A stretch of DNA of 64,000 nt, from contig JBESAV010000001.1 of assembly GCA_041242255.1 (NCBI GenBank), forward strand, positions 480,001 through 544,000, read 5' to 3'. Below are positions 43,343 to 56,826 of this stretch, piece by piece (position 1 is the stretch's first letter; each line of letters starts with the position of its first letter). The DNA is from Candidatus Altimarinota bacterium (GTDB taxonomy: Bacteria > Patescibacteriota > Gracilibacteria > UBA1369 > GCA-2718715). Position numbers and translations under genes: made by a program. The notes under the pieces were generated by a model that was not told the DNA's origin, did no database searches, and saw only the letters and a program-made list of their open reading frames with translations.

Positions 43343-43435
43343 TTAAACTTGTGTTGTGAAAACAGATAGTGCTGGTAGAAGTGCAGTAACTATTAATCCT
43401 AAAATCAATAACACTCCAAGAATTTTCTTCGCCAT
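43343..43435 (-). CDS. 30-aa single-TM peptide (absent from ORF track)
   Basis: MAKKILGVLLILGLIVTALLPALSVFTTQV*; TGGTATATT extended -10 upstream and a terminator downstream. Confidence 0.65.
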   Translation of the reverse strand: MAKKILGVLLILGLIVTALLPALSVFTTQV

Positions 43436-53400: not shown

Positions 53401-54291
53401 ATGAATCTTCAATATTCAAATCAAGAGTTTAGCGATTTGTTCAACTTAGAAAAAATAGGTTTTACCAATCTTAAACACTTTGAGGATGGTTTAGGTTTTA
53501 GCGCTATTCAAAAAGTACCAAATACAGGCTTGATGTCTTTGATTAAAGTTGGAGTGAAAAAAGAAACTAAAGAAGGTAGGGCGCCTCTCTTTATAACTAT
53601 ATCTTTAGTTAAAGACGATTGTAACGAGAATGGGTATTTACAATATCATGATGAAGATCTAAATCCACTTAGCACTTTACCAATTTCTCTCAAATCAGAC
53701 GAAGATTATTTTATTAGTAATGGTACTTTTGAAAGAGAAGATGGCAGCACAATTGATACTGAATCAATTATAAGAGAAGTTTACGATTTACATTTAAAAA
53801 GAACAAAAGGTATCGTAAGTATACCTTTAAGATTTAAATTAATGTTTAATTTCATACTTAGATCTTATAATGAGGCCTTATACAATAGAACGAAATGTCT
53901 TTTAGAGTATCTAACAAATAAGCAGTTCGTATACCCTTACTATCCTGACTTATATTTAGATTCAAGCTATCATATGAGCAAAAGTTTACATAAAAAAGAA
54001 GGCGAAGGCAGAGGAGAGGAAATTGACTTTTACAAATACAAAGTTCTTAAATCAACATTATTTCTTTATAGTTTTTTTAGCTTGATATCTTTATATATTT
54101 TCCATCATTATAATTATTATCCAGAATTCCTAACGGTTATTTCTAAACACCCACTTACTACCGCGTTATATGTTATATTATCTCTATATTTATTCGAGAT
54201 TATAGCAGAGGAGTTTATCCCAAAAATACTAAAAAAAGATTTAGATCGAATTTATAAACGAATACAAAAAAACATATATATCAATTTTTAA
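53401..54291 (+). CDS. hypothetical membrane protein (compositionally atypical)
   Basis: 296-aa ORF with two C-terminal TMs; lacks the C-rich bias of neighbouring + strand genes. Confidence 0.72.
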   Translation: MNLQYSNQEFSDLFNLEKIGFTNLKHFEDGLGFSAIQKVPNTGLMSLIKVGVKKETKEGRAPLFITISLVKDDCNENGYLQYHDEDLNPLSTLPISLKSDEDYFISNGTFEREDGSTIDTESIIREVYDLHLKRTKGIVSIPLRFKLMFNFILRSYNEALYNRTKCLLEYLTNKQFVYPYYPDLYLDSSYHMSKSLHKKEGEGRGEEIDFYKYKVLKSTLFLYSFFSLISLYIFHHYNYYPEFLTVISKHPLTTALYVILSLYLFEIIAEEFIPKILKKDLDRIYKRIQKNIYINF

Positions 54292-54953
54292 TGCCTCGCA
54301 AAAAACTAAAAAGATTCAAAGAAATAAACAGCTTCCCAAACGTCTTCCAAGACCGGGAGGCTTTTCAAAATTTCTCGCTACCACCTCACAAGAAACTCAT
54401 CTTAGAGTTAGGGTGTGGGAAAGGGGACTATACCATCCAATTGGCTCAAAGGTATCCTGATAACTTCTACCTAGGTTTCGAGAAAAAAGGTGAAAGAATC
54501 TGGCGAGGAGCAAAAACATGCTTAGACAAAGATATCCAAAACACAGCTTTCATCCGTTCAGATATTGCTCACATCAATGATTTTTTCCCAAACCAAATTA
54601 TCGATGAGATTTGGATAACTTTCCCCGGTCCATTCCCAAAAGACAAACATGAAAACCGCCGCCTAACCGCACCCCCATTCCTGGAAAGATACGCAAAGCT
54701 TCTGAAGTCAGATCACATTATCCATTTGAAAACTGATCACAAGGGATTATTTGAGTACACGCTTGATCTCATATCTCACAACCCTAAGCTTCAACTACTT
54801 CAGTCCCAAAAAGACATCCACAATACTAGTCATCAGATCCCAGACATGGACATTCAAACAGACTTCGAAAAAAAACATTTGAAAAGGGGAGAGACCATAA
54901 ATTACTTGGCTTTCAAGATAAAAGATTCCACTTTCCAGTCCTCTCCACTATAA
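54291..54953 (+). CDS. trmB: tRNA (guanine-N7)-methyltransferase
   Basis: LELGCGKG, IWITFP.P.PK..H..RRL, LKTD, T.FE. Confidence 0.93.
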   Translation: MPRKKLKRFKEINSFPNVFQDREAFQNFSLPPHKKLILELGCGKGDYTIQLAQRYPDNFYLGFEKKGERIWRGAKTCLDKDIQNTAFIRSDIAHINDFFPNQIIDEIWITFPGPFPKDKHENRRLTAPPFLERYAKLLKSDHIIHLKTDHKGLFEYTLDLISHNPKLQLLQSQKDIHNTSHQIPDMDIQTDFEKKHLKRGETINYLAFKIKDSTFQSSPL

Positions 54954-54983: not shown

Positions 54984-55658
54984 GTGCAAAAAATTACCAT
55001 CATTGCTATCCTCCTATCAGCAATCGTCCTTACAATAGCCGCCGAGCTTGTTTCCCAAGACTACATCCAGAAAGTTCGTCCTGAGATAGAAGATCAAGTT
55101 GAAGCCAACGTCCTCAAGTTAGGTTCTTTTACTGATTACATTCAACAAAAAGAACTCATTGAAAACGCAGAAGAAGCTCAAGAAATCATAGACGAAGCAG
55201 CCCCAGAGCAACCCTCTGACTCTAATGAGGCCCTTGAAAGTGTCCGCCTAAATACACTAATTTTAGAGCTAGACATCCCTAGGCTACAGTTAAGATTCCA
55301 GGAAATCCCAGAAAGACTTTTTGATTCATTTCAAATATCCAAAGATCTAGTAAATAAAGAGGTTTACGCCATAGTTTCATCTGATCAGCAAACCATTGCT
55401 TCTATTCAAGAAATTGTCACAGACGACGAAAAAAAATCTCAACAAATCTTCGAAGAGATTAAAGCCATTTCAAGTTCAGTTCCAAGTTTTTCCATCAACC
55501 AAACCAACGAATTCGGTGATCGCTCATTCTATATCAACCCCAACCAAGATTCCGATAGCGCCTTTCTAATCAACCAAAAAGGAACCCTGATCTACGCTGT
55601 TGCATACCAAAAACAATATCACGATCAGTTCAAGGATTGGTTCGAACTTCTACTCTAG
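54984..55658 (+). CDS. secreted/membrane-anchored hypothetical protein
   Basis: GTG start, N-terminal hydrophobic helix, C-terminal NQTN.FG..SFY.N motif. Confidence 0.75.
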   Translation: MQKITIIAILLSAIVLTIAAELVSQDYIQKVRPEIEDQVEANVLKLGSFTDYIQQKELIENAEEAQEIIDEAAPEQPSDSNEALESVRLNTLILELDIPRLQLRFQEIPERLFDSFQISKDLVNKEVYAIVSSDQQTIASIQEIVTDDEKKSQQIFEEIKAISSSVPSFSINQTNEFGDRSFYINPNQDSDSAFLINQKGTLIYAVAYQKQYHDQFKDWFELLL

Positions 55659-55659
55659 T

Positions 55660-55687
55660 TTGACAAAATTCCAGCCAGGGTTAATCT
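55660..55687 (+). promoter_or_regulatory. sigma70-type promoter of the small-peptide unit
   Basis: TTGACA (55660-65), 16 nt, TAATCT (55682-87). Confidence 0.55.
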
Positions 55688-55755
55688 AGCCTTAGATCAT
55701 TACACAATAGCCTAAGATCTCTTTCCGAGAGTGTCTTAAACTAAAAGGAGTAAAA

Positions 55756-55869
55756 GTGAAAAAATTAGTAGGACTATTGATTCTTATGATTCTAGTAATT
55801 TCTGCACAAGTAGGACTGTACCTATCCTACAAAGACAGCAATATTTTATACTTTGTTTTAACTCCATAG
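55756..55869 (+). CDS. 37-aa hydrophobic peptide, type I toxin-like (absent from ORF track)
   Basis: AAGGAG SD, GTG start, MKKLVGLLILMILVISAQVGLYLSYKDSNILYFVLTP*, flanked by a promoter and a terminator. Confidence 0.62.
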   Translation: MKKLVGLLILMILVISAQVGLYLSYKDSNILYFVLTP

Positions 55870-55878
55870 GTCATGATC

Positions 55879-55911
55879 TGAGAAGAGGTTTTTATTCCTC
55901 TTCTCATTTTT
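55879..55911 (+). terminator. intrinsic terminator
   Basis: TGAGAAGAGG-loop-CCTCTTCTCA (10-bp stem) + TTTTT. Confidence 0.82.
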
Positions 55912-55992
55912 CGACAATCCAAATAGTAGTTCTAAACTTGACTCAAGCCCTCAAAAAAGGTAAAAAGTGTATACTTTATTTAAATAAACACG

Positions 55993-56427: not shown

Positions 56428-56826
56428 ATGTCTAATTTCAAATCATACCTAAAAGCCGGTTACCTATATGTAGTAGCTGGGATAACACTAGTAATGATTC
56501 TTATCGGTTCAACGATGATCATCCAAAATGTCATCACCTATAATATCTTAGACATTAAGCAAGAACGTTGGGGGCAATCTCCAGAAGTTACATGTGAATG
56601 GAAATATCAAGAACCATCCACTGAAACAACAGAGACCTCAGTTCCAAGGCCTTCTGAATCCAACTATGATTCACTCGACGAGTGCATAGAAGCAGAAACA
56701 AAAGCCATCGAAGAGCAAGCTAAAATTAGATATGCTTATGACATGGCTCAAGCCGTAGCAATGCTACTAATAGCCATTCCAGTATGGGCTTATCACTGGA
56801 GACTTATCAGAAGAGAAGATAAGTAA
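56428..56826 (+). CDS. two-TM membrane protein (DUF5671-like)
   Basis: YLY.V..ITL.M...G and A.LLIA.PVW.YHW motifs; Cys pair in the loop. Confidence 0.7.
   Translation: MSNFKSYLKAGYLYVVAGITLVMILIGSTMIIQNVITYNILDIKQERWGQSPEVTCEWKYQEPSTETTETSVPRPSESNYDSLDECIEAETKAIEEQAKIRYAYDMAQAVAMLLIAIPVWAYHWRLIRREDK

Follow-up and report, generated by a model that had tools for sequence, protein, structure and literature searches.

A compact unit in the spacer upstream of rplK

Between a gene for a 224-aa protein and rplK, the genome analysed here carries a spacer of 334 nt, and the question is what this spacer encodes. An initial annotation had read it either as a type I toxin-antitoxin locus or as a tightly RNA-repressed membrane peptide. 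The spacer lies in a window of 64,000 nt (i.e., the whole stretch of DNA that was analysed, to which all coordinates refer unless contig or genome positions are given), and the genome itself consists of a single contig of 1,000,477 bp with 36% G+C. The CPR host assumed by that annotation fits this genome size of ca. 1 Mb, the presence of a DUF5671 gene and the missing ribosomal protein uL30 (PF00327; not found in this complete single-contig genome and present in 13 of 14 control genomes), all of which we take to be traits tied to the CPR/Patescibacteria.

Upstream of the unit, the neighbourhood comprises secE (start 52526), nusG (start 52850), a 296-aa ORF with no assigned function (start 53401), a trmB-type methyltransferase gene (start 54291) and, directly 5′ of the spacer, the gene for the 224-aa protein (54984–55658), which has an N-terminal hydrophobic segment. 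Downstream follow rplK (start 55993), the DUF5671 membrane-protein gene (start 56428) and rplA (start 56893). Two features of this arrangement can be recorded in passing, i.e., that the 296-aa ORF and trmB (53401–54953) separate nusG from the TM-protein gene, which nusG directly precedes in relatives, and that the DUF5671 gene (56428–56826) sits between rplK and rplA.

The elements of a small expression unit can be read along the plus strand of the spacer. A –35-like hexamer (TTGACA, 55660–55665) is located 1 nt past the stop codon of the 224-aa gene and, over a 16-nt spacer, is followed by a putative –10 hexamer (TAATCT, 55682–55687) that matches the canonical TATAAT at three of six positions (T1, A2 and T6 being kept). 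This pair was read from the sequence in a relaxed scan, and a consensus promoter scan of the unit did not report it because the –10 hexamer is weak. The leader contains a 5′ box (CTTAGATCATTAC, 55691–55703), whose predicted partner lies at 55870–55882, and a hairpin of 5 + 6 pairs with one bulge (55713–55738) that is present in the minimum free energy (MFE) structure. A direct repeat (TAGCCTTAGATC and TAGCCTAAGATC, at 55687–55698 and 55708–55719) is also found in the leader and overlaps the 5′ box, so that each of its two copies is a potential partner of the 3′ box.

A Shine-Dalgarno (SD) sequence, AAGGAG (55745–55750), is positioned 5 nt before the GTG start codon at 55756, and forms a duplex of –8.4 kcal/mol with the 16S tail ACCUCCUUU. 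The last codons of the ORF include ACUCC (55861–55865), which is predicted to pair with the core of the SD, GGAGU (55747–55751). Beyond the stop codon lies the 3′ box (GTCATGATCTGAG, 55870–55882) that pairs with the 5′ box, and of which the final 4 nt fall inside the stem of an intrinsic terminator. The latter was identified by a terminator scan as TGAGAAGAGG-loop-CCTCTTCTCA followed by TTTTT (stem 55879–55906, extending to 55911), with 10 pairs, five of them G-C, and is located 9 nt past the stop codon of the small ORF. The promoter-like hexamers, leader hairpin, strong SD and 10-bp terminator claimed in the initial annotation are thus all present at these positions. Its further claim that AAGGAG is rare in the window does not stand for the string itself (13 occurrences on the plus and 17 on the minus strand), but does stand for its use as a ribosome binding site (RBS), since a duplex with the 16S tail of –8 kcal/mol or lower was reached in just 13 of 839 gene upstreams.

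At the level of sequence, the spacer therefore has the layout of an autonomous small gene, with a promoter-like element (of which the –10 is weak), an RBS, a frame with native codon usage and a terminator, all suitably ordered and spaced.

Codon usage of the 37-residue frame

The GTG-started hydrophobic ORF described earlier was confirmed at 55756–55869 and encodes 37 residues (MKKLVGLLILMILVISAQVGLYLSYKDSNILYFVLTP, with a TAG stop at 55867–55869), with a single hydrophobic segment, a mean hydropathy of 1.30 and a best 19-residue window of 2.43. An ORF of such length in a 334-nt AT-rich spacer is in itself not rare, as the genome contains 283 intergenic ORFs of 30–70 aa, 18 of which have a mean hydropathy of at least 1.2.

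Its codon usage was scored with a model trained on the genome itself. The frame received a log-odds of 0.147 per codon, which was the highest of the six frames, and can be set beside a mean of 0.130 per codon (sd 0.109, n = 703) for hydrophobic 36-codon segments of real genes and a mean of –0.073 (sd 0.128, n = 3842) for wrong-frame ORFs of 30–70 aa inside genes. The score of the unit was reached by 3.7% of these 3842 spurious ORFs, and by 4.8% of the 289 hydrophobic ones among them. Base composition is native-like as well, with a GC3 of 0.27 for the ORF (vs. a genome value of 0.30, sd 0.058) and a G+C content of 0.333 for the unit. Codon usage thus probably favours a real coding gene, the codon score placing coding over spurious at roughly four to five to one. 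The exact 37-aa peptide is absent from a collection of 15 billion predicted proteins, indicating that it has not been reported by any gene caller.

Searches for homologues

The paralogous copies that the initial annotation had proposed to look for were not found in this genome, where both DNA and peptide searches showed the unit as a single copy in the 1.0-Mb sequence. When the DNA of the unit was compared with 40 relatives, matches ran through rplK alone (from query position 335 onward). Likewise, the peptide had no credible match in these 40 relatives, none of which is from the same genus (best E 0.022 per genome), nor in 204 other genomes of the order, where six matches with E-values of 0.0135–0.093 were obtained. 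Five of these six were inside ORFs of 199–866 aa and one contained an in-frame stop. A HMMER search of 1.84 billion representative proteins gave no match at E ≤ 0.001, at a query length of 37 residues that allows close relatives only to be detected, and tblastn against phage and plasmid records gave no match either, with a low-complexity filter that may mask a hydrophobic query.

Among the family collections, Pfam held no family at E ≤ 0.01 and, up to E 10, a single unrelated match (0.17); NCBIfam yielded just an unrelated match (0.045), and Rfam at E ≤ 10 returned noise only. The TM segment weakly matches the phage holin family phrog_2877 (E 0.031), a match that is treated as compositional. 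A metagenome scan with the neighbouring 224-aa protein revealed no relative. These empty searches reflect a lack of comparable sequences and are no sign that the frame has decayed.

Some individual candidates were discarded. A degenerate pattern for residues 24–33 was matched in one metagenome and one genome, and in no virus, with one match being in-frame within an unrelated 369-aa ORF and the other in a 35-aa frame opposite a 244-aa gene, and both were considered chance. A 26-nt similarity at genome position 601244 (88%, E 0.0097) falls in an unrelated spacer, and a 33-aa hydrophobic ORF 5′ of rplK in one relative (G010) carries neither SD nor terminator and was likewise attributed to chance.

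A lineage-specific insertion

To see what this locus looks like elsewhere, 19 rplK loci from relatives were compared. In 17 of these, rplK is directly preceded by an ORF that is homologous to the 224-aa protein and aligns to its C-terminus (E-values from 1e-33 to 7e-8), and the spacer before rplK measures 5–126 nt, vs. the 334 nt found here. The eight loci from the same family have spacers of 58–126 nt, and most of them show an obvious TTGACT-N17-TATAAT-like promoter shortly past the stop codon. DNA similarity between the window and relatives restarts at 55934/55958, and the TTGACT of rplK at 55938 and the leader beyond it still align with those of relatives. Because of the short spacer in relatives and the alignment restarting at the rplK promoter, the unit is a lineage-specific insertion of ca. 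270 nt, flanked by the stop codon of the 224-aa gene on one side and by the promoter of rplK on the other. The resemblance of TTGACA at 55660 to TTGACT at 55938, together with a 22-nt repeat (D1, 77%), hints at a target-site duplication or at an origin by splitting of a promoter, but this evidence is too weak to claim either.

SD avoidance and two further cassettes of the same build

A consensus SD is itself unusual in this host, as ordinary genes of the genome avoid SD sites. AGGAG was present at positions –20 to –4 of 10 out of 847 crude gene starts, compared with 13 out of 847 at a control position, and a duplex with the 16S tail reaching –6 kcal/mol occurred in 24 of 839 upstream windows vs. 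68 of 839 control windows. The 3′ end of the 16S rRNA (...ACCTCCTTT; L035:2960–2990) nevertheless retains the CCUCC anti-SD tail. Start regions were observed to be A-rich instead of SD-bearing.

The build of the unit was then expressed as a pattern (i.e., TTGAC[AT]-N15-18-TAnnnT-N30-90-AAGGAG-N4-10-start), of which the genome has exactly three instances, the unit itself (U1) and two others (U2 and U3). In all three, 99–101 nt span the distance from the –35 to the start codon, and the ORFs that follow (37, 92 and 55 aa, respectively) end at hairpin-plus-T-run terminators, which in U1 and U2 have perfect 10-bp stems and in U3 a stem with a G-T pair that fails a perfect-stem test. Five shuffled genomes had one or two pattern matches each, none with an ORF of at least 30 aa. 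A narrower pattern had 17 matches in the 40 relatives, compared with 11 in the reversed control.

U2 (contig 586891–587313, minus strand) combines TTGACA, a leader of ca. 57 nt with a hairpin, AAGGAGG and an ATG-started ORF of 92 aa with the 10-bp terminator, and is flanked by a rhodanese/UPF0176 gene and an aminopeptidase P gene. Its ORF encodes a hydrophilic, charged protein, with a GC3 of 0.50 (vs. 0.30 for the genome) and a codon score of 0.257 that is typical of real genes. U3 (contig about 51100–51431, minus strand) has the same build, with a 55-aa ORF containing two hydrophobic segments, and lies between smpB and an AIM24-family gene. Neither U2 nor U3 was found in the 40 relatives, the U3 protein is absent from the 15-billion protein collection, and alignment of the three leaders revealed no sequence homology. 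Four public contigs are on record for the 92-aa protein of U2 and the 224-aa neighbour of U1. Judged from these sequence patterns, the recurrence of the build is the best evidence that U1 may be a real expression cassette. Since U2 leads a hydrophilic ORF, the architecture is not specific to membrane peptides.

The reading that we prefer, and to which we would give about an even chance, is that the unit is a lineage-specific autonomous cassette encoding a membrane peptide of 37 residues with a single pass. As to the role of this peptide, we would guess at a small accessory membrane protein.

Stability of the RNA and the possibility of a non-coding unit

The annotation's suggestion that the transcript is self-folding was examined by comparison with shuffled sequences. 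The RNA from 55690 to 55911 has an MFE of –57.5 kcal/mol, vs. –40.5 kcal/mol (sd 4.25) for shuffles, i.e., a z-score of –4.00, with none of 200 shuffles as stable. Without the terminator hairpin, the z-score was –2.05 and 5 of 200 shuffles were as stable.

Such a fold (z –4.0 with the terminator included) could also belong to a structured small RNA, or to a long 3′ untranslated tail that ends in the terminator of the upstream operon, in which case the ORF and SD would be fortuitous. This reading is helped by the fact that no terminator was found between the 224-aa gene and the unit by the terminator scan, that no homologue backs coding, that SD use is not the norm in this genome and that 77 of the 624 AAGGAG sites genome-wide precede a start codon and an ORF of at least 30 aa, mostly inside genes. 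It has to contend, however, with the four- to fivefold preference of the codon score for coding, with the three out of three pattern matches in this genome that lead ORFs (vs. ORFs of at least 30 aa after 4 of the 17 matches in relatives), and with Rfam offering nothing beyond noise. Moreover, as the terminator of such a tail, the hairpin would lie 220 nt past the stop codon of the 224-aa gene, which is unusual for this genome; among its 36 intergenic perfect-stem terminators, 61% follow a gene stop by no more than 60 nt, with a median distance from stop to stem of 30.5 nt. We consider a non-coding unit unlikely.

Pairing within the transcript and the type I toxin reading

Known type I toxin mRNAs such as those of hok/Sok and AapA/IsoA combine pairing of their 5′ and 3′ ends with sequestration of the SD. 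The two pairings that the initial annotation had likened to these hallmarks do exist as complementarities. The 5′ box and 3′ box (55691–55703 and 55870–55882) form a 13-nt inverted repeat that is 85% Watson-Crick (11 Watson-Crick pairs and one G-U pair, i.e., 12 of 13 positions, as originally counted), with pair probabilities of 0.86–1.0 for this helix in the predicted ensemble. The 3′ end of the ORF indeed pairs with the SD region in the predicted fold, GGAGU (55747–55751) and ACUCC (55861–55865) having pair probabilities of 0.89–1.0, and the start codon is predicted to be paired in the full-length RNA (probability unpaired 0.01).

What these pairings mean was gauged with a set of 300 null sequences, in which the stretch from SD to start codon and the terminator were kept fixed while leader and ORF were shuffled separately with dinucleotides preserved. 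The SD was sequestered at least as much in 0.467 of these nulls. The real RNA has eight pairs between its first and last 25 nt, and at least seven such pairs occurred in 0.177 and at least nine in 0.100 of the nulls. Total MFE was the sole unusual feature (reached by 0.007 of the nulls). The claim about folding thus splits, with overall stability exceeding that of shuffles, but SD sequestration and end pairing not rising above nulls.

Furthermore, the openness of the RBS (positions –12 to +3) is 0.44, compared with a median of 0.52 for 200 ordinary genes, 31.5% of which are at or below 0.44. When the RNA is truncated from its 3′ side to end at 55800 or 55830, the predicted probability of an unpaired SD is 0.71 or 0.67, respectively, so that ribosome loading could precede synthesis of the 3′ partner. 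For U2, with its hydrophilic product, the predictions are an SD with an unpaired probability of 0.03 and a 5-pair helix between the 5′ end and the bases just before the terminator. Because the nulls match these traits, the SD is predicted to be open in nascent RNA and U2 behaves alike, 5′-3′ pairing and SD sequestration appear, as far as folding predictions go, to be generic to the RNAs of these cassettes, and their value as type I hallmarks did not survive the comparison.

These results bear directly on the type I toxin reading, in which a membrane-damaging peptide would be encoded by an mRNA silenced by the 5′-3′ helix and the SD:ACUCC pairing, with an antisense RNA as antitoxin. In its favour, the peptide has a predicted TM segment and a KK start, resembles the hydrophobic peptides of fewer than 60 aa of hok/Sok and AapA/IsoA in size and hydrophobicity, and comes from a short structured mRNA with its own promoter-like element and terminator, in which both pairings have a high probability in the predicted MFE structure and ensemble and the stability exceeds that of shuffles. 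The weak phrog_2877 holin match of its TM segment also points this way. On the minus strand, a weak terminator-like hairpin (55691–55673) and a sub-threshold ATGACC-18-TATAAA (ca. 55871–55843) would together give an antisense RNA of ca. 170 nt if used.

As the initial annotation had already noted, however, no antitoxin promoter could be identified; neither a consensus scan nor our own scan (at least 9 of 12 matches, with A2/T6) found a promoter-like site on the minus strand, whether within the unit or next to it, and four weak candidates appeared when this threshold was relaxed. Sequence scans thus revealed no antisense or divergent RNA antitoxin equipped with a promoter and a terminator. The peptide matched none of the toxin families in Pfam or NCBIfam (such as Hok/Gef, Fst, Ldr, TisB and Ibs) at E < 0.01. 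Multiple copies or relatives, which are common but not strictly defining for type I systems, were not found in its genome, in the 40 relatives and 204 other genomes of the order, or in phage or plasmid records, and a mobile-element context such as that of hok/Sok and AapA/IsoA is missing. Nor did the nulls, U2 and the truncated RNAs point to an inertness of the mRNA beyond what its composition gives. The SD and end pairings were matched by the nulls in the fractions given above and recur in hydrophilic U2, the RBS is not far from the gene median in openness, and the SD is predicted to be accessible during transcription, unlike in hok and aapA. The original interpretation therefore stands for the autonomous unit and its small hydrophobic peptide, but not for the toxin, whose hallmarks are at chance level. 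We regard the type I toxin reading as unsupported rather than refuted, and as improbable. A variant in which the peptide is toxin-like, SD-dependent and fold-gated, with U1–U3 forming a separately translated class of genes in an SD-avoiding CPR-type genome, strikes us as quite doubtful.

A possible secreted peptide or attenuator

The N-terminal part of the peptide could also be read as a Sec signal peptide (residues 1–17), cleavage of which would free a 20-residue peptide starting at Q18. Signal-peptide cleavage generally follows the –3/–1 rule, and, read by eye, the sequence has a basic n-region (MKK), a hydrophobic core of 12–13 residues and small residues at –3/–1 (I-S-A). Against this, hydrophobicity runs on beyond the putative cleavage site (VGLYL), so that the 20-residue span fits a TM helix, as does its best hydropathy window, and no processing, export or receptor genes are adjacent, the neighbours being rplK and the conserved TM protein. 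A secreted peptide is accordingly a poor prospect, and we retain the single-pass membrane peptide.

Lastly, leader-peptide transcription attenuators, in which a ribosome on a short ORF sets the read-through into a downstream operon, share with the unit a short ORF, a close intrinsic terminator and an operon downstream (in the order promoter, short ORF, terminator, rplK, with the ORF ending in ...L-T-P-stop 9 nt before the terminator), but such control of the rplK-rplA operon is highly improbable, given that rplK has its own TTGACT promoter 3′ of the terminator (55938) placed as in relatives, that relatives are without any such leader, that the terminator is predicted to coexist with the 5′-3′ helix at high probability with no competing antiterminator fold and no sign of mutually exclusive terminator/antiterminator folds with dependent read-through, and that a ribosome at the stop codon would probably cover just the first one or two bases of the stem.

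A model for the cassette and its wider meaning

Under the preferred reading of an autonomous cassette for a small membrane peptide, the unit would have been inserted between the gene of the conserved N-terminal-TM protein and the rplK promoter. Transcription would start around 55694 from TTGACA-16-TAATCT, and read-through from the upstream operon may also supply transcripts, since no terminator separates this operon from the unit. The consensus SD would recruit ribosomes via the anti-SD tail still present in the 16S rRNA. Because ordinary genes avoid SD sites, a benefit of the SD to translation in this host stays putative. Translation from the GTG at 55756 would probably be co-transcriptional, as the SD is predicted to be open before its 3′ partner is made, and the peptide would insert in the membrane with the KK end facing the cytoplasm. 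The 10-bp terminator would end the transcript and shield the rplK promoter at 55938, which is common to relatives. Once the RNA is complete, its compact fold probably makes the short transcript more stable and dampens further translation. On the basis of the modelled structures, we would not regard this fold as a switch dedicated to a toxin.

Small bacterial membrane proteins of fewer than 50 aa with one TM helix are a general class, which the unit resembles in its size, single hydrophobic span, basic N-terminus and stand-alone gene. It differs from them in being an orphan, with no partner complex identified, and in having a consensus SD in an SD-avoiding genome. Phage 'morons' are autonomous promoter-ORF-terminator cassettes between conserved genes, and the unit is like these in being self-contained and placed between genes that are adjacent in relatives. 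Unlike morons, it is situated in a cellular chromosome beside ribosomal protein genes, has a native-like composition, and has neither nearby phage genes nor a match in phage records.

As it stands, the unit would be an unannotated orphan small gene, and it is an example of the ease with which hairpins and pairing between the ends of an AT-rich RNA can be mistaken for toxin hallmarks. Its host has a genome of ca. 1 Mb in which uL30 was not found and SD sites are avoided, yet keeps an anti-SD tail and carries three lineage-specific cassettes with a consensus –35, a consensus SD and a strong terminator. If expressed, these cassettes would be a handle on the origin and translation of new small genes in reduced genomes. 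Should the peptide prove toxic, it would be a first type I toxin candidate in this group. Full-text searches of the literature library consulted yielded no paper pairing type I toxins with Patescibacteria or the candidate phyla radiation.

Elsewhere in the window, a 30-aa hydrophobic ORF (MAKKILGV...) on the minus strand (43343–43435) lies directly 3′ of a gene for a 698-aa repeat protein. It is without an SD, has a coding score of 0.232 and is followed by a terminator 7 nt past its stop codon, and may be another unannotated small membrane protein.
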